Shown here one piece after another: positions 5,201-60,062 of a stretch of 64,000 nt of DNA. The translations under genes and the position numbers were made by a program. The notes below the pieces were generated by a model, which was given only the letters and a program-made list of their open reading frames with translations, had not been told where the DNA came from and made no database searches. Position 1 is the first letter of the stretch. Each line of letters begins with the position of its first letter. The DNA comes from Octopus vulgaris (Eukaryota), in contig OX597824.1 of assembly GCA_951406725.2 (NCBI GenBank), forward strand, positions 43,896,001-43,960,000. The letters are read 5' to 3'.

Positions 5201-6010
5201 CTATGCTATGCCCAGATTAGTAAGTCTTTTCTTGCAGTCGTCCAGTACTATTTTGTCTGTCAGAAGTTGGTCTTTTGTCCCTTGGCTTTTCCCTCTGCAT
5301 CCCTTCGGTTCCACTAGCAGTTTGTCATTCATTTCCAGGAAGTTATATACATAATTAGATATTATTCCTGTCATTAGCTTCCACATCAGTAGCAAGCAAA
5401 TGATAGGCTGGTAATTATTCACTGCATTACCTTTACTGGAATCCTTTTGACAAAGAACTGTTTTACTGGGGTCAGCCACTTTGGGATTTGCACCCTGTTG
5501 TTGATCATTTTATCCATTTGTGTGGCTATTCTTCTGTGTAATGCTGGGAAATGTTTTACCCAATATCCTTGTACCCCATCTGGGCCTGGGTATTTCCAGT
5601 TTGGCAACTTTGTTGTCTGTTTGGTTACCATTTCAGTCATTGTTCTAATATTGCTCTGTTTCACTTCATATTTTTCCAATCTTAATTCCTTCAACCATTT
5701 AGCATCTTTGTTATGCTTTCTTCTATTATCCCAGATGTTACTCCAAAACCTTCTACTGTCTTCAGCATCTGGTCTCTCACTCCTGTTAACCTTTCAATAC
5801 AGCCATTGATAAATTCTTTTCTAGTCTTGTTGGAACAATCTGTTGATTTTATATTGTTTAATTCTTTGGCCATATCTCTTAATCTTTGTCGCTCTAGCCT
5901 TTGTTTCAACTTTTCAAGAACTACATTTAGCCCTTTTTTCTTTCTCCTATATCTATGTTCCAGTTCTTGATATTTTTCTTCCCTTTTGATTTCCCTTTTT
6001 CCCTTTCATG
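2227..6010 (-). mobile_element. R4/Dong-clade LINE (RT plus restriction-like endonuclease), decayed, with a duplicated 3' end and a Penelope insertion
   Basis: Motifs PGPDGVQGYW, GTKDQLL, HLLYMDDLK, YKYLGI, RRHDN..VHW and ILWDF.IQ.D...RPDIVV...DIAIP. The 3' end abuts (ATT)n. Confidence 0.88.
3197..4078 (+). mobile_element. Penelope-like element (GIY-YIG fragment) with inverted pLTRs, nested in the Dong LINE
   Basis: About 3440-3570 translates as KDCMCSIPCSCGRLYKGETCHPLKIRLDEHRK. 3222-3328 is the reverse complement of about 3984-4078. Flanking TSD-like 12-mers: TTGATGCAATTA (3185) and TTGATACAATTA (4079). Confidence 0.85.
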
Positions 6011-9215: not shown

Positions 9216-9426
9216 GGTGGCGAGCTGGTAAAATTGTTAGCACTCCAGGCAAAATGCTAAACGGAATTTTGCCTGTCGCTACATTCTGAGTTCAAATTCC
9301 ACCAAGGTCGACTTTGCTTTTCATCCTTTCAGGGTCAATAAATGAAGTACCAGTCAAGTACTGGAGTCGATGTAATCGACTTACCCCCTCCCCAAAATTT
9401 CAGGCCTTGTGCCTACAGTAGAAAGG

Positions 9427-35354: not shown

Positions 35355-35759
35355 TACGGCACTCCGTCGGTTACAAGGGTTCCAGTTGATCCAATCAATG
35401 GAACTGCCTGCTTGTGAAATTAACGTGTAAGTGGCCGAGCACTCCACAAACACGTGTACCCTTAATGTAGTTCTCAAGGAGATTCAGCAAGATACAGTGT
35501 GACAAAAGCTGCCCCTTTGAAATACAGGTACAACAGAAACAGAAAGAAAGAGTGAGAGAAAGTTGTGGTGAAAGAATATAGCAGGGTTTGCCATCACCCC
35601 CTGCCAGAGCCTTGTGGAGCTTTAAGTGTTTTCACTCAATAAACACTCACAACACCCGGTCTGGGAATCAAAACCACAATCCTATAACCGTGAGTCCGCT
35701 GCCCTAACCACTGGGTCATTGCACCTCCACTATATATATATATACACACACATACTTAC

Positions 35760-35973
35760 TTGTAACAACCAATGCAATCAATTACTCCATTGTATAAAAG
35801 AGACTGGTGGGTCACAAATGTCTCAACATACTTAGTGCTGTTTATCAGAGGTAAAATGCTTTGCAAGCTTTTCCAATAAGCAGCAAATTCATTGCTCACA
35901 TCTGATTCTGTAATAGTCTTCGTAAGAATGTTTTGGATGAAATTATGGAAATTAGCTCCATTGTCTTTTAAAT
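35760..35973 (-). CDS. MGME1: MGME1 coding exon 2
   Basis: Acceptor tctttcAG, donor AA|GTAAGT, 214 nt, phase 1 to 2. Encodes DLKDNGANFHNFIQ...VETFVTHQSLLYNGVIDCIGCYK, the first part of the PD-(D/E)XK nuclease core. Confidence 0.93.
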
Positions 35974-37716
35974 CTGAAAGACAAAACAAATGAAGAAAAA
36001 TGTTAGACATTAACATCACAATGAACTTTGTAGAAAACATTTATTTATTAGACTTTATTGAATCCAGATGTACAATGTGGTGTCTGGATTTTCAGCAGTC
36101 TTCCATCTTAAATGATCTCACCAGTTCTGTTAAACTAACATTCATTCTCTGTTAAGAAATGTGCCTCTTACATTCTATACACAAGATCACTCATAAAAAA
36201 ATAAGATACAAGCCACTACATAAAAAGGTTTGCAATTGACCAAGTGGATAGGTACTTGCCAACTGACTGAAGTTAATGTTTCATGAACTGACATACTATA
36301 TTCCAGATAAAAATGTAGATTTAAATATGCAGTCCATCTAAGTTTTAAATATGTGTGTAACCTGTAGGATGTTATATAATTAATGACTGTTTCCTTAACA
36401 TGCAGATGCATTTAAAAAAGCAAAACACATCTCTTAAAACTTAACTTTGGTAAATTTTAGACATTAGTAACAGAAGCAGCCTTTGTATCAAATATCAGTT
36501 TGCATTCAACTTAACTTGGACATGTTTTAAATACTGTAAGCTGTGGTAATCATCCTAATAAATCATCTTATATAGATGTTAAGTGCTAAAAGGCACAAAT
36601 TACATCAGCAGATAAAATTTTATCAGCACCAGTGGATGGGATTGTTGTACCACATGATTTTTGGTGTAATTTTTGCTCCCTCAGCAATAGGCACCCAAAC
36701 ACTGAACACCAGATCAAAATTCTGTCAAACTGACATAGTTTAACACTGACGAAGCAGTCAGTGATGTTGCAAAAAGCTGACAGGCTGTGTAGAAATTAGC
36801 TATTAGCAATTGAAGCAGCCTTTGTAATGAAAACTAATATGCACATCCAACTTAACTCGGACATGTTTTAAATGCTGTAAGCTTGGTAATCATCTGGCAA
36901 AATCATCTTGTATAAACATGATGTGCTAAAAAGTATAGCAGATAAAATTTCATCAGCAGCAGCAGCAGCCGAGAGTTGAATTATGTAATTTTAGTAATTT
37001 TTGCCTCCGCAGTAACAGATACCAAAATACTGAATGCCAGATCAAAATTTTATTTGAAATGAATCAGTTGGAGATAACATTCCCAAATGATCTTAGCACC
37101 TAAGTGAACTAATATACATACATATAATGAACTTTTCAGCTTAGAAATGCAACAAAAGGCCAGCATCTGTTTGCAACTCACACTTCATGTTGTTTGCTCA
37201 AAATCTTACCTACACAAGTAAAAATAAGTTAACATTTTCTCAATGAACTTGGAAAATGTAAAAGGACATCACACTAGTTTATCATCCTTCACATCACAAC
37301 ATGAAGACAAAGTTTTCAAGAATACTTAACAGGTTACAAACAACCACATAGACAGTAACATCTCCCTCTGACAGTGTCACCATAAGGACATTTGTGCATT
37401 GATCTCATTATCACGCTATTCTATTCAGTACCAATAATAGTAGAAAAAAAATTTATTTGAAGGAAGTAGAACTAAATTTAGACTTTGAAATCAAGTGTTA
37501 AATAAATCCCAGAAATTTGGATACTAGAAAAATGTTTAGAAAACTGAGTGGATTCTACTGCTTATGAGATATAGTAAATTAAACACAAACTTACAACTAA
37601 ATGATACATAGAGCCTTTGAATGTAGTGTTTCTAGTGGTTATATTATAAAACATCACATCAAAATATAAGCTGCAAAATAAAAATTATTTAAAAAGAAAA
37701 ATGTATTTCTACAAAC

Positions 37717-38413
37717 CTTGCTGATATTTTAAAAATTTCTTCTCACCAAGTTCTCTAATCATTTTTGCTTGCCATCTCTGTAAAATTATCTGGCTCTGCA
37801 GTGGTAGTGTTTGTTGTAGTATAGATGTCACAGATGGAACTTTATGATCAATTAATGTATCCAAAATATCTTTATAGTCTGTGTTGTCCAAAACAGTTTT
37901 TCCTGAGTCTACAATAAGCATCTTAGAAGATATGAACTGTGAAATTATGGCTCTCCAGTTATCAGGTAAAACTTTAGTACAAGAATCAGAAAAACTTTGA
38001 AGCTGATCTGTATCTTCCAAAAGAGATGTAATATTTTTCTCTGACTTTTTTGTTTTTTCTGAAAAGTTTTCACAAAGTAAATCCTTTTCTTGAAGAGCTT
38101 TTAAAAATGTGTTTTCAGTTAGATTATTCTTAGGGTATTTTGAAGAAGACTCTTTGGTACCAGTAAATGCAGGTTTTATAATACTCTTGGTAGATGTAAC
38201 AGGTTTATTATTCTTGATAGACTTCTTTGAAGAATTGAAACCTCCATAAGATTTCAGCAAAGGTCCATATAAACGGCGGTTCTCTTTATTTAGTTTAACA
38301 ATTGCCTGATATTCAGGTTTCACTGGTTTAGACAAACTTGTAGAACATAAGAAGAAATATCTGGTATTATATAATTTGATGATGTAAGTTCTTGCATAGT
38401 ATTTTGCCAGCAT
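37717..38413 (-). CDS. MGME1: MGME1 coding exon 1 (putative mitochondrial targeting N-terminus through the PSVT motif)
   Basis: Acceptor ttttccAG precedes 38428 and the ATG is at 38413. The N-terminus MLAKYYARTYIIKLYNTRYFF is basic and free of acidic residues. KVPSVTSILQQTL...LQRWQAKMIRELGE matches the MGME1 motif PSVTxxLQQT...ERW..MI.ELG. Donor is G|GTTTGT, phase 1. Confidence 0.92.
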
Positions 38414-41055
38414 ACTGCCAAATTGTAACTGGAAAATCAAATTAAATACAATTAAATTAAGTATCACTATAGTTAAGATCAAAATATGACAAATCATGCT
38501 ATGGTACCTCAATCACCCTGGTATTTCAACCATTCACAAAGCTTGTCCCAATGTTTTGACTGCTTGACTGCTAAACAGTACCCCTTGTATGCACAGGAGT
38601 GTTGTAACTCAGCAGTGTCATATATTTGTGTATAAATCGGAAAATATGGAAATGTGCAGGGTGGGTAGAGTGAGGCAACAAGGTGGGAGGCACTGATGCC
38701 AGATGTGAGAATGATAGCAGAGGTGTTAAAGATGAGATATGACAGACCTAAGGGAGAGAGCTTGGAGAGAAGGGAGAAATAACAGAAGGCACAGAAAAAT
38801 AGTGATTAGTAAAAAGTAATGTGGACAGGGATAATAATGAGAATGAGTTTAAAAGTGGTTCCAAGGGGAGAAGGAGGTAAGTGGAGAATAAAATCTGCAC
38901 TGTTCAGCTCTCAAACAATTACAGTAGCTGAGTAGTACCATAGTTAGAAGAGTGATGGGGGATAGGTGTTAGAATGGTGAAATGTGGGGGAATGCTTGAT
39001 ATAGGCAGATTGGGTGCATGAGCTAATATGTACAGGCATAACTATAATACTTTTAAAACCTCACTTTCACCCTGATGGATGAAGCACAGTAAATCACCAA
39101 TCATCTTGGTTCTTTATCATCTCTTCCCAAGAGGCTCAATAACCTGATGTCAGTCTTCACTATGTCATCCCACATCTTCCGGGGTGTCCTTCTTATATAT
39201 TGTAAAGTATAATGTTGTGTTATCAAAGTATATTATATATTGTAAAGTATAATGTGTTGAAGATAATTTTCCCTCTTTTCTCTTAAATCAACATGTTAAC
39301 ACTCCTCCAACATTTTGGTGACCCTGAAATGATACATAGTAAATATATAAATTAGTGGTTCTCAACTGGAGTCCATATAGGATTTTGTTGCTAAGGTTTA
39401 TCAGCAATAAATTGGTTATACTTCTACAAAATATTTCAACTATTTTTTTATACAATTTCTATTAATATTTAATTATAAAAATATAATGGGATTTTTTCAA
39501 ACATCGAATGGTTTAGAACCAGATATAAATCCTGCAAGTATTCTTTGCAAGTTCTATCCATATTTAACAATCAGCACTTCTTAATGCAATTGTTCTTAAC
39601 TATATGCATTACATGATCGTACCAATAAAGTCTTCTCACTTGCACACCAAATTTGATAACTTTTATGCCCAATCTTTCTCTCAACACATTTGCACTTTGT
39701 TGTACATGCACACTCAGCAGATCATGTTCATTTCTTTCTAGTCTTTGCATGTCTTCTGCATTTGCAGCACATGTTTCACTACCATGTAGCACTACTGTTC
39801 ATGCATAAACACCATACAAAATGTTTTTCACTTTGAGAAAGACATTTTGTTATCAATAGAGATAACAGCTCTTTAAACTTTCTCCAGCTAGTTCATATTG
39901 CAGCAACTATACTTTCAGAACATCTTCCCCTGCTAATTAGGAAACAGAAACTATGTACCTCTTGGGAGCCTTCTGAATATTTGAGAAAATCTATTTTTCA
40001 TGTCCTTAGTGTTTATTGCTCCATTTATCAATTGTAAACATTGTAATGCATAATCATCATCATTTAGCGTTCGCTTTCCATGCTAGCATGGGTTGGACGG
40101 TTCAACTGGGGTCTGTGAAGCCCAGTCTGATCTGGCAGTGTTTCTACGGCTGGATGCCCTTCCTAACGCCAACCACTCTGTGAGTGTAGTGGGTGTTTTT
40201 TACGTGCCACCCGCACAGGTGCCAGACAGAGCTGGCAAACGGCCATGGACGGATGGTGCTTTTACGTGCCACCGGCACGGGGGCCAGGCGAGGCTGGCAA
40301 CGGCCACGAACGGATGGTGCTTTTTACGTGCCATAATATTAAGTATTATCAACAAAGCGTGATCAAAAGAAACTTATCCTCTTTTCTCATAATTCAGCAT
40401 CATAATATATACTAAATAAACTCTGCAAGTAATTCTTACAAAGCAGTACTCATTCTAAGGAGACAATGATGATATGTAAAATGATAGAAAATAGTTAAAG
40501 ATAGAAGATTTGTAGTTTATGGAGGTGGGGGGTGAAAGAAAGGTGTTAAGGTCAATGCAATAAAGTAATAAAGTCACTGAGAAAAATAGTTCAATTTTTT
40601 TGTTTACTAATCATTCCAATTTTAGGTTTCAGCAAAAGCAGTTATCCTCTTTCACATCTTTATCTTTTTAAGTTTATCTCTACAAATTTTCTATAGAATT
40701 CACAGCCAGCACTGAAAGTTACAACGTTTTGTATATGAGAAACGTCGTAAATTTTATCTGTAGAGATAAACTCAAAAATGAAAACATCGCACTGCTAAGA
40801 CAAAAGGCATTGACTTGTAAACCTTGAATATACTTCGTAGTATATTATAGTTGCAAAACAAAATCTGTATATTTGCTAGCCATTAACATCTTTTATGTAT
40901 TGGATTCCTAGACACAACAAAATAAGTTCCTTTATTTCCACTGTTTTGATCAATGTTGTAACACAAATTTACTATTTTTAATAAAATAAGTAAAGTAAAA
41001 AGGTATGAAGAGTTTCAATAGCAGTGTTACGTTGTAATTAAGGGTTAGTATTTAG

Positions 41056-43403
41056 TAGGCCTCGAAACTGGTTTTATATCATGATCAGTAAACCTGAAAC
41101 GGATTTGCCAAAACCGATTTTAATGCTTGCTGCTTCTATTTCTTTTTTTTTTTTTTGCAAAACATTTCTCCATTTTTTCTTTTAGAAATATCGTTGAAAT
41201 TGAACTGTTGTCGGTCGCCTTTAGTTGAGAGTGCTGTAGGTTTATTTGAAACATATCACATATCAATTCTCACCTTCTCTCCCCTTGAACCTTAGATCAG
41301 TACCTTGTCATTTCCTTTGCTAACTCCTGGCTGACTCTTTGAATTTGGAGGTAACAGAGTTTATTCATAGCAAGTCAAGGGGATGCTGTTAGTCTTCAGT
41401 CAGATGATCTTTCCCATTGAGCATATGTAATAACCAGTTCCAGATTCATTTCAAGGAAGTAACACTAACTAAATTTTTTCTTAATTATTTTCATTAGCCC
41501 TAGCATGATAAAAAGAAAATCAACTATTTGGAATTTTTTTGACAGGAAAAGCAAAGATGAAATTCAATGCAATAAGTGTGATAAGATCACAAAGTCTTCT
41601 GGGGGATCTACTACATCTCTGATTCATCTCTGATTCTACGTCTCTGATTCATCAAATCAACATAAATCAAGATGCAAACCAGCCTCCTGTGAAAATGACA
41701 AGAACAATGGAACACTTTTTAACAAAGAAATCAATGGAAGAAGAAGTTTCAAAGTTAGCTGCTTTGAATGGATTCTCTTTCAATTCAATCGCCAAAAGCA
41801 ATTTTATACATAGAAATCTTCATAGTCAGAGAGGCAAATATGATAAATTACAACCAACATCTGCAAACGGAGTCTGGAATATGGTAATGAATTATTACAT
41901 AACCAAGAAAGAAGAACTTATTCTTTATTTTGAAAAAGAAGTAGTGCTGGGGATTCGCTACTCATTGACATTGGATGAATACACATCAATTCAAAATAAA
42001 CGATATATGACATAAATGTTCATGGGAAAGACAATCATTGGTCGTTGGGTCAGTAGTTAGACCTTAGGTCTAGAACCAAAGACGAAATATGGTTTGTTGT
42101 GACTAGCTTTTATAGAGACTAGGAGGCTCCAACGGGAAATTTAGAAGACTGTGTCACGGGACCTTATCAGAAGGCTGTGATTGGTTGGGTTGCACATGGG
42201 CGCGTAATAGAGCAAGAGACAAATTGCGCCAATACCAACCAATCAGAGTAGTGGACACAACAGGGTCCAAACAGCTGAAGGCTAGCTGTTATCTGCTACG
42301 TTCATATTTATGTTATATATGACAGAGAGAGAAAATTTCACTAAGCTTCCGCTATAAACACAATGCATTCAGTATTTTACCTGACAAACTTGTCCTAATT
42401 TTTGTGTTGAAAAGTCCAGTAATTGGAAAAGCTCTTTCCGACTGGACACTATAAAGTTTCTCAAGCTTTTCACTTCAGTTTGAAGTTGCTTCAAAATATT
42501 CGAATTCTTTAGAGATTTCAAATCCATCTGTTATTATCTTGGGCTCTTCATTTTCTTCTTTGTGCTTGTATATTCACACATGAGTTCATTACCTTCGTAA
42601 GTAGATGGGACAATGGTAACACTTGTTTTTAGGTTCCCTCCTATTTCATTTTCTTTGTATAATTCTGTTGTGTTCTCAACGTCATGTTCAGGAAATAATC
42701 TCCTTATATGTTCGTTCAGCATACTTCCTTAAACGTTGTTTCATTAAAAAAAGAAAACATCCAGAAATTGATTCACCTTTAAACTTCCTTGGGTTATGTA
42801 AATATCTCAAGAGAGTCAAGGTTTCGACATTTCTTCTCTTATTATATCTATGCATAAGTCTTTCATGAAGATTTAGAGCCAAAGGGTTGCCAACAATATT
42901 AAGTTTATTCAATAAAAATTCTTTTTATTTTCCTACTGGTACTTGCACTCATTTATCCATTTTCGCTTTTATTGTAAGCGACCGTGTGGTGTATTAAAAG
43001 AGTCATTCATTCGTCACCTCTCCTTTTGCACGGTCGTTCTACATTATCTTTAAAAGATTATTTTCGAAGGAAAGTGAATCATCAAGCAAGTCAAGAAACT
43101 TGACTGATTCTCAAAAATACGACTTGGAAAAACTTTGCATTCCTGATTAAATAAATATAATACCATTATTTTTTGTTACTGTTTGTACATAGATACAGAT
43201 ACAGGCACCATCAACATATTTGTGGATATCAGTCAACCAGTTGCTTTCTCTCTCTTTCTCTGTGTATGTATATAAACAAAATACAATACACGACAAACTT
43301 CTTCGTGACAGGGACACCATTCTAAATCCGCGAAAACCGGTTTTGAGAATTACTTATACTTAAACTCAGTTTTGAGAATTATCGTTTTTTTTTGCGAGCC
43401 CTA
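41056..43403 (+). mobile_element. hAT transposon (BED finger, Ac/hATm-like), internally rearranged
   Basis: TIRs TAGGCCTCGAAA / TTGCGAGCCCTA. Perfect 8-bp TSD GTATTTAG at 41048-41055 and 43404-43411. BED finger STIWNFF...CNKC...GGSTTSL and RYSLTLDEYTS on plus; SVQSERAF dimerization domain on minus. Confidence 0.92.
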
Positions 43404-44599: not shown

Positions 44600-44945
44600 A
44601 AGGAATACAATTACGACTCTGACTCGACCTTTGTCAGATTCAGCGACTTGTATTGCTTGGTGTGCCCGCCGTGGATTGTTAAAGAACACAGTATCCGGTG
44701 TGCAACGTACAGTGTGAACTTATAAATATGAGAGACATTAACGACGGTAAAATTTGGTACTGCAACACGTGCAAAAATAAAGCTAGTATTCGTCAAAGTA
44801 GTTCGTTCGAAAACAGCCATCACAGTTTGTACAATATCATCCTTCTATCATATCGCTGGGCCTACGACTTCTCTCAGAATGACATTTCTCCTGAGATTCA
44901 GTGCAACAAGAATACTTGTGTTGATTGGTGCCATTTCTGTCGTGC
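44600..44945 (+). mobile_element. Merlin/IS1595-like transposase N-terminal fragment
   Basis: Encodes DGKIWYCNTCKNKASIRQSSSFENS..SL..IILLSYRW...TCVDWCHFCR. Confidence 0.75.
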
Positions 44946-45081
44946 GTTGATTTTACAAACTTGCAATAAATTTCTAATCATATTATTAAAGTAGTTAATA
45001 ATGGAAAACCAAATTCAAACTGTTTGATGAAACGATTTCAAAGAATACCTAAACGAAAATAAACGAAATAGATATTCTTAC

Positions 45082-45130: not shown

Positions 45131-45349
45131 TATTACATTAATCTTATCCGCCAATTGTTGTATCTATAATTATGCGGCTATATAGTTAATGAAACTTTTA
45201 AAATTTTCAAAATATTAATTTTCGAAAATACGTATGTTGGAATTGTTTTTTACATACGTGATTAAATATTTTTGTAATCAAAAACAAAATAGTCGAAACT
45301 ATTTACTAAACAAGTTACTAACTCTGGTTGAATTGTTATTGAAGATGGC
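45082..45349. promoter_or_regulatory. Putative bidirectional promoter MGME1/ZNF830
   Basis: Divergent genes. ETS/GABP-type ACTTCCGG at 45118-45125. YY1-type AAGATGGC at 45342-45349 overlaps the ZNF830 ATG. CpG is locally enriched. Confidence 0.6.
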
Positions 45350-45457
45350 AGCTTTCAAGAAGAAACCCGTCTCCAAGGATGATTTGCGTCGTTTAATGAA
45401 AGAAACAAAAATTACTGTTCGAAGCAAAGACAAAAAAGTTGATCATCCTCATGCAAA
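45345..45457 (+). CDS. ZNF830: ZNF830 (CCDC16) exon 1
   Basis: Good Kozak context aagATGG. Encodes MAAFKKKPVSKDDLRRLMKETK...KKVDHPHAK (LRRLMKE and I.SP.AKYN-like motifs). Followed by donor GTATCCTT. Confidence 0.9.
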
Positions 45458-45654
45458 GTATCCTTAACATCAATTGAATATTTCATATTCACACCATTTT
45501 AACTTTATAACATATTACTTCTGTTCCACGATAGTTACTACATTTAAGTATTTTATTTTTGATAAAACTTATTGAAGGTTATGTTTATAGTGTTCTAACA
45601 GCAACTTTATATTGTTACATTGAGGCCTGCTATATATGTGTGTGCGCGTGTGTA

Positions 45655-45812
45655 TCCGTCTTCCCTTCCTTGGATCTTTCCTTTTTCTGTGTTTCTGACG
45701 AAGAGCTCCGCTCGAAACGTTAAATCCTCCTTCTTTCTTTCCTTTCCTGAACGTCCAATAACACTATACTTGTTCCACGTCCTCGCGTTGTGTTTTCATT
45801 TTTGGATTAACT
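45655..45812 (+). mobile_element. Solo Penelope pLTR-like repeat with hammerhead-like core, flanked by TA repeats
   Basis: TTT-CTGACGA-A-GAGC-TCC-GCTC-GAAA-CG-TT-AAA at 45692-45724. Confidence 0.65.
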
Positions 45813-46793
45813 ATATATATATATATGTTAATGCGAGGGTACTAAGGCGAAATGTAGGTTAAAACTGAAATTTTATAATTGTACTTATATTTCGGCATAG
45901 AATATTAATATTGATAAAAATTTGAAAATACATAAGGCAAGATCTGGAATGACATGATACTGACAATACAACTTCCTAAAAATAAATATGATGCATGTAA
46001 CAATTTGTTGAGAAAAGAACTGCTCCTGTACTACTCCAAAAAGCTGGTATATGTGGAATGAAAAAAAAAAGATTGTTCACAGGAAACAATCTTTTGTTTT
46101 TTTAAACTGAAGAAAGCAATCTTAAAAGATTATACTTTCGATTCCATTATATGCTTGTAGTTACTTTCACGATATGATGGGCCATACATATGTGAAAACT
46201 GGTTTTACATCACAGAAATTTTGTACAATTTCTTCGTTAGGTTGTATGAACCAGGATACCATAGAGTATGTAAACGTAAGCAATTTATAACAGAAGTTAT
46301 AGCATGGTTAAAGTGGGAATTACTTCATTTTCTTTGAGTTTATTTTTTATTTTTATTTACAAAAGCAACAACTATTTTAAGATAATTTCATACTCTAAAT
46401 GTAACATGGAGAGAGGTTATAGTTTTTACTTTTACTTTCCACTTGATATTTATATATAATTTTAAAATGTATCATGTTAATAACAGCATTTGTCAGTTCA
46501 TTTCATCCTTGTCTTTTTCAAAAATGTTTGTGCTAGTACAATTAAAATTTGAAGGTTTTCTGTTATATTTACATCATTCAACGCATTACTCATTACTGGG
46601 CTGGAACCAAATTATGAATTTACAAGATAATTAAAAATGTGATATCCATTTCAACATACATGTGTGTAAGTCTCCTCCTTTCATTATACTGTACAGTTAC
46701 TCATCATCGTTTAACATCTGCTTTTCATGCTGGCATGGGTTGGACAGTTTGACTGAGAATTCACAGGGGTAGTTTTTGATTAATCATTTAAAA

Positions 46794-48215
46794 CAGGGGC
46801 TCCCAACATGGTCCATGTGGACCACAAGGTGGTCCACAGGAAAATTCAGATGGTCCTTGGAAAATTCTCTGTGGTCCATCTGAAGAATTTAACTTTTTCC
46901 ATACACACACGTCACACAAGCAAAATATGCCTCATCGCAGATGCGTAAGCACAGATGAGTGCACTCATTACCTATCGGACAATTAGCTATCCCATCATAC
47001 ACAGACAGGTACGGACGCGTACAATCAGATCCACATTTGCACGCATTAAAAACACACAAAAAATTGTGTTCTCGGCCAGCCAAGGTGATCAGGTTTTCTA
47101 CCTGACTTTTGAATTGAGGATTACTAACGAAACCTCAGTTCTTAAAGCTTAAACCAACATATCATATTATCTCTCCAGGTACATACATTTTTATGCAAGT
47201 GTTAGTCTAATTTTAATCTGTAGAAATTTTCTGTCAGTGCTATGGAATAACGTTCCCTTAATTCTCCATCCACCAACTCGGAAAAAAGATTCTGTAACAA
47301 TATCACGAAGATGTGGTTTTGTATCCAGTGTAGAAGATCCCTTTTTACCACAGTGTATTTTCTTCTCAAAAGTATTAACTAACGACTCAGTGAAACCCTT
47401 GAAATTGTTGTATCATCTACAAAAAATCCATCCTGGTTTATTTGGCAAGCCAAAGGAGTACTTTGAAGAAAACCATTGCATAAAAAATGTCTCATCTTCT
47501 TTACTCAAAAATTTCCTTGTCCATACTAACAACTGTTCTGGTCTGCAGGCATCCTAAACATTTCGTTCATGATAGCAAACAAGGGTCGCCCACATACCAT
47601 TGGCAAAGATCTGATTAGGCCCTCCATACTTCAAGCATATAAAGTTACTAATTTGCCGAACACTACATCAGTTTTAGCAAGTATTCCACTTTCAAACAAC
47701 ACTGTATCTTCCCGCATTTGTGAAATAGCCGAAGATGTCGAATCCACAGTTGTAGAAGGCTTGCGACACTACAGATTCTCATTGACAGTGGATGACAGCA
47801 CTTTTGAAAACAAATGTGCTTTGCTTGCTATGTGAAAGGTACCACAGTTTGTGAAAAACCTACTCTTTATGAAAACCATACTGAAAAACACGGGAGAGAC
47901 GATCTACAATGCAGTCATGGATTATCTTACGAAAAATGGTATTGATACCCTCAACCTCATATCAATATGCACTGATGGAGCACTGTCTATCATTGGCAAA
48001 TCCCAAGGTTTTGTTGCCAGATGGATAGAATTTAATCCCGTCTTCACAATTCATTGCGTTCTCCATCAAGAAGACCTGATAGCAAAAAGAACCAGAAATA
48101 ATATATTTTCTGAAGCCCTAGACTTAATTGCTTCTGCAGTAAAATAAATCAAAAGATCTGCTCATCAGGACAGAAATTCTTTGGAAACCACAAAGATCAT
48201 AACTTTCTGTAGTTC
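46794..48215 (+). mobile_element. hAT Buster/Charlie (ZBED5/SCAND3-like) transposon, 3'-truncated, inside the U12 intron
   Basis: TIR CAGGGGCTCCCAAC after ATTTAAAA. Motifs PQC..KVL.NDS.KP.KL..HL, PHTIG.DLI.P, PLSNNTV, ICTDGA and HCVLHQ. Confidence 0.9.
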
Positions 48216-50276
48216 ACAAACTTAAAAACTGTTGTGGTAGATAACGACTTACTTGGTGGGAAATATCAGTATGGGCTAGTGTGGTGGAGAAATAGGAATT
48301 GTTCAGAAATGAGGGAATGACGAGCAAGACATAGAAGTGATGCAAAGGGATATGTAGAGATTTGTAAGGGGTAGCTATGGTGAAAGAAATGAGATGGCAC
48401 AGGGAATGGTAACAGGTATGGCAGAGGAGTGGGAGAGTAACTGGAGGCATGTGTGAAGGTTGAGAATGAGGAATGAAGAATTATGTTTGGTAGATGTGTG
48501 TGTGTATTTAAGTTTATTTATATATATATAGAGAGAGAGAGAGAGAGCCTCATTAGATTGATTAAATTTATTAAAACTGAAGATATATATATATCTCATG
48601 TTTCATTATATATGTGGTAAAATTCATTATCATCATTTTAGCACATTTTTTTGCATGTATTGAATGTCTTCTGAAGCATTGTCTTGCCAGAGTCCTTTTG
48701 TGAAGTCGCCCTTCACAACTTCTTCCCATGTCTTTGGTCTATTTCTTCTGTCTTCTTTGCACTTGATTGTTTGAACCTTCTTTATTCACCCATACACATG
48801 TCCATACCAGATTCAACTAGATAATACTTTCCCAGTCTAACTAGCATTAAAAATAATAGATACTTGTATGCATACATCTTTGGTAAGGTAAACCACATAC
48901 TTCCCAAAGTTATTCATATTCACTAAGTCCTGATTTAAGGACATAGCTAATGTAAAAATTAATCTTCAGCATTATTTAAGATGACTAATGTAGTTTTATA
49001 TTACAGTGTAATATTTGGTGCTACGAGGAATTTTTTTTAGAGTTGGTATCACAATTTTCCACTGGCTGAAGATTGTTTCAGTACCATATGCTGCAAGCCA
49101 CCTCTTGGTCGAGATTGCCAATTACTCCAAAGTTAGACTATTTTTATGATGAAGTTAAAATCCCTTTATATGAATGAGATTTCAACAGACATCCACTTGT
49201 CTTTCATGTTTTAAAAACTAGCATAATATTGCAATAAATTAATAAAATTTTCATGCTTTTACTAAACACTTCCAACCCAGTTTATTTTTTAAATTAATTG
49301 AAACACATATATTGTATACTTGTTAGAAATATAGTTGCAGAAAAGCTTTAAAAAGGTACATATGAACTAGTAAGTTGTAATGCTCAAACATAATGTTTCT
49401 AACATATAGTTACTATTAAATGGTGTGTATGACTGATAAGACTAAATATCAAGAGAATTGATCTTCTGCAATTTCTTGATTGTTTTTTGCTTGTTAGTTT
49501 TGTATATATTAGTATTATTTATTGATTGATTAAAAATGGAAAACATTTTAAAATATTCATTACAATGATTTGGTTATTAGGGCAACATGAAAATATTGTT
49601 GTGACTTGGTGGTGGCGGGGTAATGAAGAGGGGATATTAGCTTTACTTGAGAGAGGTTAGGCTTACACAAATATTTATTTCAAATTTTGATACAAGGCCA
49701 GCAATTTTGGGGAAGGGGTAAGTCAATTAGATTGACCCCAGTGCTCAACTGGTACTTATTTTATTGACCCCCCCACAAAAGAATGAAAGGCGAAGTCAAC
49801 CTCAGCAAAATTTGAACACAGAACATGAAGACATGAAATTCTGCCTTAAACTCACAAATATTAACAAAGAATGAAAGCTGTTTTGAAAAATACAAACCTG
49901 TTAAAACTACAGTAGTATTACAAACCCATTCAAATTACAGTAGTAAGGAAACAATCTTCATGGGTTAAAACAGTTTTACCCTGACTTAAATATACACACG
50001 TATTTACAAAATATATTATTCTTAAAATGAAGTTCATTTTTGTAAAAGAGGAATAAAATAGATTGCATGGATTTTTAATGGTTCCAGAGAGATAGCAAGC
50101 ACAATCAACCCTAGCAGGATTTGAACTCAGAATGCAAACATTCATTTTGTTTCCTATAATATAGTTCATGTATTCTAAATTACGTGATTGGTTTCACATA
50201 GCAAGCAGTATTGTACTTCTTTTATATTGTTGGTGTACCATCACAAATATTCCTTGACAAATTTTTTTTACTCCAG

Positions 50277-50376
50277 ATACAACTGTTTGGGACAGTTAGT
50301 ATGTACTGTATGTAACACTGCACTAAAGAGCTCTCTTCTGTGGAATGCACATCTTCAGGGACGTCAACATAAAGAG
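50277..50376 (+). CDS. ZNF830: ZNF830 exon 2 (C2H2/matrin-type zinc finger)
   Basis: Encodes YNCLGQLVCTVCNTALKSSLLWNAHLQGRQHKE. Donor GAG|GTAC. Confidence 0.93.
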
Positions 50377-52964: not shown

Positions 52965-53340
52965 TGTATTAAAATACGGAATCAGAGCATGAACTTAAAT
53001 ACAGTGGTTTCAACATTATTTTAGTTTCCATTTATAATCAATACTATTATGTTTATAATAGCATTTGGAAAAGGCATAGATATCAAAATCACCAGTAATC
53101 TTTCTCTTAAAATTTTCAGGTCTCTGATTCATGTATGAAATCATGTTCATTCCTCTATATTGAAGTAACCATGTACTTAGAAAAATTGTTCTTATTGAAA
53201 AACAATGCAAGACTTCTGGTTCTAAAATTGTAATTTCTTGCTACTGTTGCATTGTATCCTTCAACCAGAAATTTCCCTTTGTCTGTTAAGGGACTTCTTA
53301 TCTAATCAAAGATTTGTTTCCTTTTTCTTCTTCTTTATAG

Positions 53341-53446
53341 AACCTTGTTTCACAGAATGAAAAGCAGCAAGATTTGCAACAAATTAATCTTTTAAAAAGG
53401 AAGTTAGCTGAGACAAATGATGAACATGACAGCAAAAAACCTAAAG
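53341..53446 (+). CDS. ZNF830: ZNF830 exon 3
   Basis: Polypyrimidine tract plus TAG acceptor. Encodes NLVSQNEKQQDLQQINLLKRKLAETNDEHDSKKPK with a bipartite NLS-like KRK...KKPK. Donor G|GTTTTG is weak; phase 0 to 1. Confidence 0.8.
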
Positions 53447-54421: not shown

Positions 54422-57229
54422 TTAATAGTAGATTTTTCTACTGGAACTTTGTAAACAGCATCCTACATCATAAAGGTTTTCCTTGCTTTAAGACATGAGG
54501 CAAAGCTATAACAAACTGCTTTTCAGTTGGTTTCTCAGTTTAGTCCTTGGAAAAAAGTCTCTAATATCATCATTCACAAATGATTTATGAAATTTTCAAT
54601 ACTTTGATATTTTAATGTTCTTGTCTGGCTGTGTTAGCTTTCAAGCTAAATTTATGAAAGACTTCTGCAGAATTATCCTTTAACATAAGAATGTTGATTC
54701 TTAATGGTGACACTTGATTATAACTTCTGAACTGAGAAAAATTGTGGCTTTCCATGATGCCAAGGGATCCCACCATGGATAAGTTTTACATTGGAGAAGC
54801 TATTGTCTAACATTGTCAATTCCTCCACCATTTTCATAAGCGGTGAGCTTTCCTGTGCATGAAACTCTTGTGATCTCACATAATTCTGTTGTTAGTAATT
54901 GACACAATATAATACAGTTATACAATATCCAAAATTATGGTCATATACATTTATCTTTCATTTGTAGTACTATATACCAAATGACAGTCAGTTGGAATAA
55001 ATATTTTCTGGAATGTTTTAGACAAACATCACAATCTCTTTAGAAATACAACCCAATCCATGTTCTGCACCAAATTAAAGTGTGACACACTGGAAGGAAA
55101 GGAAAGAGTTATATATCTTCATTTAGATAACTTTTTTCTTTTAAGTTGTCAATTTTTTAATGTTCTCTTTCTTTGGGGGTTTTTATTGTTATTAAGTGAA
55201 AGTTATTTAATTGCTGATCAAATTTATTTTTATCCCACTCCTCAATCAACTGCAGCTCTCTGTTCTTCTATTTAGAGGTTCTTATATCACCTCTTTGGCA
55301 AGTACAGTGAAATGTATGCTTTGCTAAGGAGGTCCAGTAATATCAAAACATATCTGAAGTTGTCTCCCATACTTGCTAAAATTATTGGTTTCAAATTTTG
55401 GCACAAGGCCAGCAGTTTCAGGAGATGGGGTTAGTTGATTATATCATCTTTTTTCCAACTGCTACTTATATCAAACCTGAAAGGATGAAAGGCAAAATTG
55501 ACCTTGGCAGAATTTGTACTCAAAATGTAAAGACAGATGAAATACCACAAAGCAATTTTTTTAGCATGCTGACAATTCTGTCAGCTCGCTGCCTTAGTTG
55601 CTGAAATTATTAAAATAATATTAGTTACTGAGCTAGTGTTGGCTCTTCTTTGCTGCATAATTATTTTTAATTACTTAATTAAATATGTAGTGCTTATAGG
55701 ATTATATCAACTTTAGTTGGGAGTCAGTTCTTCACAATAGTAGATTTCTAATCTATTTAGATTCTAAAGTTAAGACTGGAAAGAAACGAGAAGAAATAAA
55801 AGATGATAATAAAGAGAATCCTAAGTTTTGAAAGGTAGATTTAGAGAAAGAATACCTAAATTTTTGATAAAGTTTGTTTTCTTACTTTTTCAATATATCT
55901 TTTTTTGTCTTGATTTTTAGCTTCAATTCTGAAGAATAGTTTGAAAACAAATTCCTCAAAGTAAGTTTCATATTTTGATAAAAGAATTGTTTTGCTGGAT
56001 AGTTTAAAAACAAAAACTGAATCAAATGTTAAAGTGGTTAAAATATTCTTATATTTGACATTATAAGCATCAGTTTCTTTCAAAAGATAGAAAATGGCTA
56101 ACATGACCCAAACCACATATCAGTCACTTACCAGGTGGCCATGCTACTAACTTCACAATGAAAGGGTTCCATTCTATTCCCAAATCTGATATAATTTGAT
56201 TCATAAGGATATTTTCATGCAAATGTCAATCAGGTCACCTTATGTTAGTCATTAATAGAATAGCCTATTCTACTAGCATTAATTAACTGCCAGATTCACT
56301 TGTGGAGTAAAACTAGTACAATTAAAATAACAGGAATAATTTTAAAACCCAACTTGAGGTGATGGAATGGTGTTGCCTTCTAATATATTTGATAATATTT
56401 TCACCCCATAAGTGATAGCTAAATATACAGTCCAAGCCCTGTCTGTAGGTGTGTTAATTCTTAACTGTCACAAATTGGTGCTTATAATGTTTTGAGATGA
56501 GGCAATAGCAAGAATGACTGCAGAGATGTTATTATTCATTTTGATTCTTTCATACTGGAATATAATGAGTCAGTCTGCAAAACAGCAACATTCTACATAT
56601 TTCATCTTAAACACTCACAGTGCCAGTGTGTTGAGTGCCAGCTCCTTCACTACAGTTTATGTTGATGCTAGACTTAGAAAAATTATCTAATGATGTTATT
56701 TCTCTTAAAATGGTACAGACAGGGTAGAAGTAGCTTGCCAAGCAAACCCAATTCTTAAAGTGGATTTGCTTGCCAGTTTTTTCAGTTTGTCTATTGTCAT
56801 CTGTGTTCAAGTGAATGTTCTAGAGTCTATACAGAATCATAAAGTTGTATATAATCTTAAGACCTGATAGGCATGGGACACTACTATGGTCCTGTTGTTT
56901 CTAATATTGTCATCTCTATGTGTGTTTGGTTGCAGAAATTCAGTTAAAAGTTTTTTTGACCAATTTTTCTGATACTTTAATGTTCTGTATATCCATTATT
57001 TACGGTTTAAAACGTAATTTCCCCCACGTGGGGAAATTAATATTGTCACACTGCTATTAATGCAAGCGTTAGCTTCCACTTCTGTCATATTAAGCTCTAT
57101 GAACTTATTTGTTTCAATACTTGTTAAATGTTCTATTTTCCATTAAATTCACTTCTAATTGCATGATTGATTTGTTTCTTGTCTACATTTTTCTGTGAAG
57201 TTTATCAAACAAGACAAGCTTCCCTATAG

Positions 57230-57358
57230 TTGATGAATCTGATGACTCAATGTCAGACAGTGATTCAGAAGCTGATCTATCTGAGACAAAAAATGTTTCC
57301 ATCCCTTCCGAAAAATCAACTGATGCCAACTCAGCCACAGCCTCATCACTTCCTAAAG
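57230..57358 (+). CDS. ZNF830: ZNF830 exon 4 (acidic/Ser-rich)
   Basis: Acceptor ttccctatAG gives the required phase 1. Encodes VDESDDSMSDSDSEADLS...SSLPK. Donor G|GTGAGA. Confidence 0.78.
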
Positions 57359-59049
57359 GTGAGAATTTAAACTATTATATTAATGTTCTCTGTCATTGCA
57401 TCAACTTTACTTTCCATTTTCCTAAGACTGATAAGCTATATACCTGTAGCTTATGCACAGGTAAATTCAGTTAATTCTATTCTCTTCTTAACCAAATGCA
57501 TCTGGTGTGTAGTTGGGAAAATATCAGGAGGGTACTCTGCCTAGTAGAAATAACAGACCAAATTTCCCTCAAACCATACTCCACCATCTTAAAAAGGAAA
57601 GGTGACATGTGTATCCAGGATATTGTAGCCTTGGATATTTTATAGATTGGGTAATCACAGCTAGAATGCCTTTAATCATAAGTCTGCTTGATCATGGCTA
57701 ACCTGGGACTAAGATAACGGCTTCATCATTAACTGCTCTGAGTGTGGTCAAATAACAATAAGATCTTGATAAAGCTGTATGCCAACTTTTTTCAATTCCT
57801 AACCTAAACTGTTTCACATACCTTATAAATGAAAGGTATGTAATGTCACCAGTTCTCATTTCACTTGCCTGGTCCAAGTTGTCATTTAATCCAAGCTCAA
57901 TCCTGATTTGCAGCTTTGATCCATCCTATTTCATTTTCAAGGACTACAACATCCAGTTTGACTTCCTCTTTCATGATAGTTGGATGTAAGTTCAGGGATA
58001 TTTGGCTACTATTTCTAGCAAGTTGAATACCTATATAGAGGTTTTCTTTTCAGTTCTTTCTTGGTTGTAGTTATTTAGCCCCAGGCCAATCCTAGCTGAG
58101 CAGACCTCTGATGAAAGTTTCACCCCCATGGCCATTCCTCTTTTTTTCCTAGCATAGAACTACATTATCCAAAATGGCTGAGGTTTGTTTGTTCTAAGAA
58201 AGGAGTGTGATCTGAGAAACAGTTTGCTGTTAATTTTAGCAGGTTATGCAAGCACTTAGAAGATCTATCATTGACTTATACCCACCCCAATAAAACTACA
58301 GGGCACTCTAACTGAAAAACAATTGGAATGTCACAGCTTGTTCTTACAAATAATGGTTTCATAGTTCATATCCTACATGGGCTAAGGTATCTGTTCATTT
58401 CTCTTTCAAATGGATAAAATAAAGAAAAATAATCACTTTATTTTACTACATCAAGCTTTCCATCAATTCACTCTCCTCGGTTTTCTTTTTTATATAGAAT
58501 AGTCTAGTAGCTCACATTTAATTACCATCTAGAAGAATGTACAGTATTGTATTCAGCCATCATTATCATTATTATTTCATCCAGTCTCTGTTCTACCCAT
58601 CTTCCATGAGTCTGACAAACCTATCTGTATTCAACTACGTCTGTACTAATGTGTGTTAATTGAATGAATATTTTACAGTTGTGTATTTCATAACACACTC
58701 ATCAACCACCACCACCACTACTACCTTCATTTAGTGTGTAACCTTGGTAGTATCTTTACTGTTACCATGACAACAGTGCAGCAGTTGTAAGAATGTTTCA
58801 CACAACAGGTCTGTTTGAATTAAAAGTCACAACTAGAAAAACTAATTTTCACTTTCAGTACATATTATACATAATGTATTCAAATCTACTACCACCATTT
58901 TCTTGTATCCTTATTTCAGTTTCCTTGACTGATGAAACAATTTCCATCCACTTCATAGTTATTAATTAGGAGTTAATACTTGAAAAGATTTTCAGTTAAA
59001 ACAACAACTAATTATGCAATTAATCTTTTTTTTCTTTACTACTTGTTGA

Positions 59050-59940: not shown

Positions 59941-60062
59941 ACTTCTTCGATTCTGGATCGGCACCTGCTGAAAATAAAGATGAAGCTGGTAATGATTCTG
60001 AAAGTAAGATAGCTAATGTCTTGCCTGAAGGCTTTTTTGATGACCCTGTGATTGATGCTAAG
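59941..60062 (+). CDS. ZNF830: ZNF830 exon 5 (gene continues beyond window)
   Basis: Acceptor tatttcAG. Encodes DFFDSG...LPEGFFDDPVIDAK, the ZNF830 hallmark LPEGFFDDP. Donor AAG|GTAGGT. Confidence 0.93.

Follow-up and report, generated by a model that had tools for sequence, protein, structure and literature searches.

The window analyzed here, a stretch of 64,000 nucleotides of the Octopus vulgaris genome (contig OX597824.1 of assembly GCA_951406725.2, positions 43,896,001 to 43,960,000 of the forward strand), carries on its plus strand six of the nine exons of ZNF830, a gene whose first intron bears the signals of the minor, U12-dependent spliceosome. Together the nine exons form a reading frame of 960 nucleotides encoding 319 residues. 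The coding part of exon 1 (45345..45457; ATG at 45345, 37 codons plus two nucleotides) was delineated from spliced contigs and from a match to residues 1-40 of ZNF830 from Octopus bimaculoides (P0001), and exon 2 (50277..50376), at whose end the contigs continue into exon 3, encodes a matrin-type C2H2 zinc finger (PF12874, E=1.9e-7). Exon 3 (53341..53446) and exon 5 (57201..57358) are supported by protein matches, the former also by a contig of sequencing run X1 whose loose end at 50376 reads the start of exon 3 at 53341. Exon 4 (55921..55960), which is not among the protein-search matches, restores the frame in the assembled coding sequence, and exon 6 (59941..60062) carries the invariant PEGFF motif (PF23406). 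Exons 7-9 (L002:103-180, 5497-5573 and 9217-9382) lie beyond the window, within the next 10 kb.

The assignment of the gene to ZNF830, proposed in the original prediction, is borne out by all hallmarks of the ZNF830/CCDC16 family, namely the N-terminal matrin-type C2H2 finger, the PEGFF motif with the PF23406 coiled coil and a C-terminal WR motif, as well as by identity at 308 of 321 positions with O. bimaculoides ZNF830; among the best 120 of 464 homologs, those with names are almost all ZNF830 or CCDC16. ZNF830 is single-copy in the 2.8-Gb genome: a retrocopy or paralog was considered and rejected, all eight protein matches, both PF23406 matches and the single exon 2 DNA match falling at this locus. 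A profile search with exon 2 returned mainly other matrin-type fingers, and sequence searches of the PDB found no ZNF830 chain. The protein was also said to belong to the XAB2/Aquarius intron-binding complex, in agreement with the description of human CCDC16/ZNF830 as a subunit of that complex (PMC10208982). Introns 2-7 of the gene measure 1.2-5.3 kb and intron 8 about 3.6 kb. The donors of introns 2-8 are non-U12, and these seven introns are likely spliced by the major spliceosome. Because introns 2-8 span 1.2-5.3 kb, the length of intron 1, whose growth to 4.8 kb had been put forward, is ordinary for this gene.

Intron 1 (45458..50276; 4,819 nucleotides) interrupts the gene in phase 2 within Lys38 of a conserved A-K-Y motif. 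The preceding exon ends in ...GCA AA at 45457, and the donor reads AA|GTATCCTTAAC at 45458, the U12-type 5' splice site GTATCCTTAA (45458..45467) fitting the RTATCCTT consensus and being in line with the U11 and U6atac duplex energies given below. The branch box TTCCTTGAC (50250..50258) fits TCCTTRAC and is complementary to GUAAGGAA of the genome's own U12; its predicted branch adenosine, A50257, lies 19 nucleotides before the last base of the intron, as had been proposed. By inspection of the sequence, the 3' splice-site region (50259..50276) is short and consists of a run of nine T's, to be set against the rule under test that minor introns lack a distinct polypyrimidine tract, followed by the acceptor CCAG|A at 50276, the interval 50209-50275 being free of any other AG. 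Splicing yields ...HPHAK|YNCLGQLVC... and joins the reading frame directly ahead of the PF12874 finger in exon 2, as predicted. In the 64-kb window, GTATCCT occurs at 4 of the 3,526 plus-strand GT sites and TCCTTRAY 6-40 nucleotides upstream of 10 of the 3,721 AG sites, giving a joint chance of both signals of about 3e-6 for a given intron, although neither motif taken singly is rare in 64 kb. The number of U12-like motifs in the window is near chance expectation. Two of these were seen elsewhere in the gene, a U12 donor-like motif adjoining a branch-box-like motif at 58905-58930 (intron 5) and a donor-like motif at 53254, 87 nucleotides ahead of exon 3.

Use of these boundaries is seen in assembled sequencing runs. 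A search with the intron 1 sequence listed 24 runs; none is on record as RNA, their RNA status being the guess of the search tool. Six of them were compared with the window, X1, X5, X9 and X10 at loose settings and X1, X9, X13 and X18 at strict settings. The predicted joint 45457^50277 (GT..AG, with an unambiguous position) was found in all four strict-setting runs, each from a different study and together covering two coded organisms; the contig depths are 99.9, 57.4, 5.2 and 30.4. Among the joints listed at strict settings (15 of 16, at a 25% share), this joint and one back-joint are accompanied by short repeat-to-repeat joints; none is a second exon-to-exon joint using another donor or acceptor. 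The joints listed at loose settings (15 of 75) are all repeat-derived and neither show nor exclude 45457^50277. In X9, X13 and X18 the listed spliced contigs start at 45347 or 45348 with no upstream exon attached, and intron 45458-50276 is likely the first of the gene, albeit contigs cannot show a transcript start. The context of the start codon (GAAGATGGCAGC, positions 45341-45352) resembles the TISU/YY1 motif of genes with short 5' untranslated regions.

Intron 1 sequence is itself widely covered in the runs, a coverage biased by the use of this very sequence to find them. Contigs in X1, X5 and X13 span the border between intron 1 and exon 2, and contig 24 of X5 extends from intron 1 across exon 2 and departs at the donor of intron 2, although contigs are not molecules. 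The border between exon 1 and intron 1 is crossed by none of the contigs listed for the six runs, a result that assembly clean-up can explain. A comparison of intron 1 with intron 2 (bins of 4.5, 1.93, 0 and 0 at loose and of 4.6, 0, 0 and 0 at strict settings) was set aside as evidence of retention, since intron 1 sequence had served to find the runs and the depth of contigs does not allow parts of a gene to be ranked. The back-joint comes from a single contig in one of the four strict-setting runs (contig 26 of X9; 404 nucleotides, depth 5.48), in which 50249 is joined back to 45459, base +2 of the intron. The chance of two ends falling so near both splice signals is about 3e-6. A clean lariat read would connect 50257 to 45458; the observed joint is without G+1 and lies 8 nucleotides upstream of the predicted branch adenosine. 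Since donor and branch box both contain TCCTT.AC, a complementary DNA stopped at the donor would, of all sites in the intron, re-prime best at the box (-11.8 versus -9.1 kcal/mol for the next site); skipping at 2'-5' links and template switching there are both known artefacts (PMC5378181). The back-joint points to an excised intron and supports cleavage at the 45458 donor; it neither maps the branch nor shows stability.

The genome encodes RNAs expected to recognize such an intron. Rfam searches for U12, U11 and U6atac returned matches over the cut-offs for U12 (125 bits), U11 (five matches) and U6atac, the pairing regions of all three being intact. The donor at 45458 forms duplexes of -5.6 kcal/mol with the octopus U11 and -5.4 kcal/mol with the octopus U6atac, the best values among the eight donors of the gene (others at best -4.8 and -1.9), and the branch box pairs with U12 through a G-U wobble with A50257 bulged. 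U6atac is present in many copies, at least 43 matches exceeding the Rfam cut-off (43 of the 46 scored) on many contigs (e.g. L009, L010, L096-L106), and a DNA search returned 40 copies of 81-100% identity. Thirteen copies examined have unrelated flanks, varying 5' ends and a T-run after them, and several abut sequence resembling short interspersed nuclear elements; no clear target duplication was found among the thirteen. These features suggest that the multiple copies are likely retroposed. Large copy numbers of small nuclear RNAs (snRNAs) have been reported from the giant squid (PMC6962438).

That this intron is of the minor type in other animals was published in 2010, as was its loss in mammals, and the novelty that the original prediction implied for both is thus not upheld. 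Lin et al. listed intron 1 of CG11839/CCDC16/ZNF830 as U12 AT-AC in Drosophila, with orthologous U12 introns in frog, lizard, chicken, zebrafish, platypus and lamprey and a U2 intron in plants; retroposition removed the intron in mammals and in two lineages of fish, three times within vertebrates, in keeping with the statement that human ZNF830 is intronless (PMC2831892). Literature searches for an octopus or mollusc account of this intron turned up none that names it; Octopus sinensis is included in a survey whose database or supplements may hold it (PMC10639083). The gene is not mentioned in PMC3291851 under any of four names.

To these data a scan of metagenome loci adds a comparison at codon level. 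Of the 80 loci kept from 118, 31 lacked a zinc-finger match; another three were left out (L043 and L046, which begin inside exon 2, and L090, a false finger match). Of the 46 informative loci that remain, 20 have an intron at this codon and 26 do not (transcripts may account for many of the latter). In all 14 loci with both intron ends visible, the intron sits at AK|Y in phase 2, exactly as in the octopus. At the protein level Ala37 and Tyr39, which flank the site, are invariant in 38 aligned proteins, and A-K/R-Y is kept in 113 of the 117 homologs with a detectable finger (of the 120 best), a figure that says nothing on the state of the intron. In four of the 14 introns the donor is the U12-type ATATCCTTTT: L050 (bee-like by best match), L084 and L086 are AT-AC, and L081 (2018-2584), whose boundaries were deduced from the reading frame, combines a U12 donor and branch box with AT-AA ends. 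The other ten have U2 donors, namely L074 (bivalve-like by best match; AA|GTAAAT, 287 nucleotides) and nine introns of 46-55 nucleotides, several of them near-duplicates. Among six loci with the 3' end only, L087, L088 and L092 (termite-like) end in AC after CTTAAC and three end in AG. We also note that the ZNF830 frames of L015 (coral-like) and L017 (fish-like) are unbroken and preceded by over 1 kb of sequence; L015, if genomic, could represent another loss of the intron outside vertebrates. Several lineages have lost this intron or turned it into one of the U2 type.

None of the four orthologous U12 introns with both ends visible is GT-AG, the subtype of octopus intron 1. Given that the fly intron is AT-AC and that all four U12 orthologs begin with AT, a subtype switch in the octopus is the simplest reading, and its GT-AG ends are likely derived from an ancestral AT-AC form, as judged from these sequences. 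A switch from AT-AC to GT-AG has been proposed to precede U12-to-U2 conversion (Burge et al., cited in PMC2831892, with syntaxin-6 in fish as an example), and the octopus intron would then likely represent the intermediate step of this path. The GT-AG state of octopus intron 1 is what is new here, the intron being already in print for other animals.

Taken together, the motifs, the used joint, the orthologous introns and the minor snRNA genes agree with the U12 type assigned in the original prediction and argue, in our view strongly, that an ancient intron at a conserved ZNF830 codon is removed precisely, most likely by the U12 spliceosome, and that the full-length protein probably depends one-way on this machinery. 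U11 would bind the donor at positions +3 to +8, U12 would pair with the branch box, and U6atac would then replace U11 at the donor. Retention of the intron would give K-Y-P-stop, the stop falling two codons into the intron. The 40-residue peptide forecast for this case is correct as arithmetic, but the usual outcome of U12 intron retention is decay in the nucleus or nonsense-mediated decay (PMC8329584), and unspliced transcripts would more likely be held in the nucleus or degraded than translated. As to the claim that a spliceosome component depends on the minor spliceosome, its one-way form has some support in the fly, where spliced CG11839 increases when U12 does (PMC6199344) and CG11839 protein decreases in miso mutants (PMC12084885). 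The CG11839 donor has been described as the weakest U11 partner among the known fly U12 introns (PMC7644725).

Several observations weigh against this interpretation. The change in CG11839 expression in a fly U6atac mutant was reported as not significant (PMC2952598). By energy alone, 152 of the 3,526 GT sites of the window pair with U11 as well as or better than the donor, and the branch box, at -7.2 versus -8.5 for the pyrimidine tract of intron 3, is not singled out. Position +9 of the donor is A in the octopus versus T in all four orthologous U12 donors, and the nine T's preceding the AG may be compatible with the major spliceosome as well. The direction of the subtype switch is read from four loci of loose affinity and the fly, and no other cephalopod or gastropod genomic copy was present among the loci seen. 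The A at +9 and the T run would fit an intron part-way to the U2 type, removed partly or mainly by the major spliceosome through its GT donor and T-run acceptor. The GT-AG ends, the CCAG acceptor, the U2 introns at the same codon in the bivalve-like and other loci, and the more frequent conversion of GT-AG U12 introns (PMC2831892) all lean this way, but the donor retains both C's (+5 and +6) as well as an intact TCCTT, the branch box matches its consensus in full at U12 distance, and both signals are rare by chance, so that we regard such a hybrid as most improbable.

Two further proposals were considered. According to one, the excised intron would persist as a stable lariat or circle of about 4.8 kb, part of the intron signal then being a product of splicing and not unspliced precursor. 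The back-joint, with its low chance probability, is compatible with this, as is the donor bin of X9, which is fully explained by the spliced contig and contig 26 (13.78 versus 13.8). Yet this is a single contig in one run, its joint, without G+1 and 8 nucleotides upstream of the predicted branch adenosine, is explainable by skipping of the reverse transcriptase (PMC5378181) or by re-priming, contigs give no level, and short unspliced paths may vanish in assembly clean-up; persistence of the intron thus appears unlikely. The other proposal, a feedback link, was raised as possible in the original prediction; in its full form, ZNF830 or its complex would affect minor-intron splicing or lariat turnover, including that of its own intron, and the level of ZNF830 would both track and adjust spliceosome activity. 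Membership in the intron-binding complex (PMC10208982), the fly responses in PMC6199344 and PMC12084885, the existence of autoregulated minor introns such as that of Srsf10 (PMC7244321), the wide coverage of intron 1 and the contigs across its 3' border in X1, X5 and X13 could be cited in its favor. The fly data, however, show dependence in one direction only, the runs were selected with intron sequence, and the intron was lost three times in vertebrates and is of the U2 type in plants (PMC2831892) and in 10 of the 14 loci; because it has been repeatedly lost and converted, dependence on a minor intron is dispensable. The features of autoregulatory switches of the Srsf10 or U11 snRNP-binding splicing enhancer type (U11 sites in tandem, splice sites that compete, or an alternative exon) were not encountered either: RTATCC[TC] occurs only once on the plus strand of 45345-50376, at the donor itself, no U2-like donor pattern was found at 45345-45700, and no alternative exon joint is among the 15 of 16 joints listed at a 25% share, where rare isoforms would be missed. 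The feedback link thus finds no supporting sign in this locus, and we consider a true switch quite unlikely. Very unlikely, too, is a sensor combining these ideas: slow removal of a GT-AG minor intron caught in transition would set the level of an intron-binding-complex subunit, the excised lariat would remain as a stable RNA of 4.8 kb, and minor-spliceosome activity would in this way be coupled to lariat turnover. Mammals and fish would have left such a loop through retroposition, bivalves through conversion to U2. If true, feedback or a stable lariat would connect the minor spliceosome with the complex responsible for catalytic activation.

Some 30% of intron 1 is occupied by a DNA transposon (46794..~48250, plus strand) that is decayed and internally deleted. 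The element belongs to a family with 41 genome matches, whose near-full copies are 83-86% identical. The left end is present and common to L094 and L095, whereas no right terminal repeat was found near the window copy or in these two loci; the frames of the window copy are broken. The Buster transposon announced for this intron is present as a remnant of a dispersed hAT-like element, Buster-like by feature score: language-model features from the Atlas fall in DUF4371 and FAM200/ZBED5/SCAND3-like clusters (score 0.90-0.94), and Pfam scans found no hAT family match. FAM200, ZBED5 and SCAND3 are Buster-derived. With respect to splicing, the transposon would likely be a passenger. Elsewhere in the window, transposase-like fragments lie just upstream of the ATG exon (41623-42015 and 44683-44994) with weak Pfam matches only. 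About 7 kb upstream of ZNF830, exon-like frames on the minus strand (35759-36040 and 37712-38512) belong to a gene running away from it that looks like the mitochondrial exonuclease gene MGME1, an assignment that Pfam did not confirm.

Compared with the published cases, the octopus intron adds a cephalopod data point to the one described by Lin et al.: as in fly CG11839 and vertebrate CCDC16, it is the first intron of the same gene and of the U12 type. The fly intron is AT-AC, in contrast to GT-AG in the octopus, and the match at codon level comes not from the fly but from the bee-like locus L050 (AT-AC at AK|Y). The closest parallel for the proposed dependence is SF3A1, for which the need of the major spliceosome for the minor one was spelled out in the supplement of Lin et al. 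(PMC2831892). In both genes the messenger RNA of a spliceosomal protein would require the minor pathway, but SF3A1 is a subunit of the U2 small nuclear ribonucleoprotein whose intron is described as insect-specific, whereas ZNF830 is part of the intron-binding complex and has an intron of wider distribution. Srsf10, autoregulated through a minor intron (PMC7244321), and the U11-48K and 65K genes, regulated by U11 (cited in PMC8329584), are likewise splicing-factor genes whose expression is tied to the minor spliceosome; they differ from octopus ZNF830 in autoregulating through competing sites or an alternative exon, none of which was found here. With regard to intron evolution, the ZNF830 position displays the AT-AC U12, GT-AG U12 and GT-AG U2 states of the known switch path and, unlike that path, adds an AT-AA U12 form (L081) and complete loss. 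A single codon of one gene now shows all five conditions, GT-AG U12 in the octopus and GT-AG U2 in the bivalve-like and other loci among them, making molluscan ZNF830 a handy site, of modest and evolutionary value, at which to test the proposed path of subtype switch followed by conversion.

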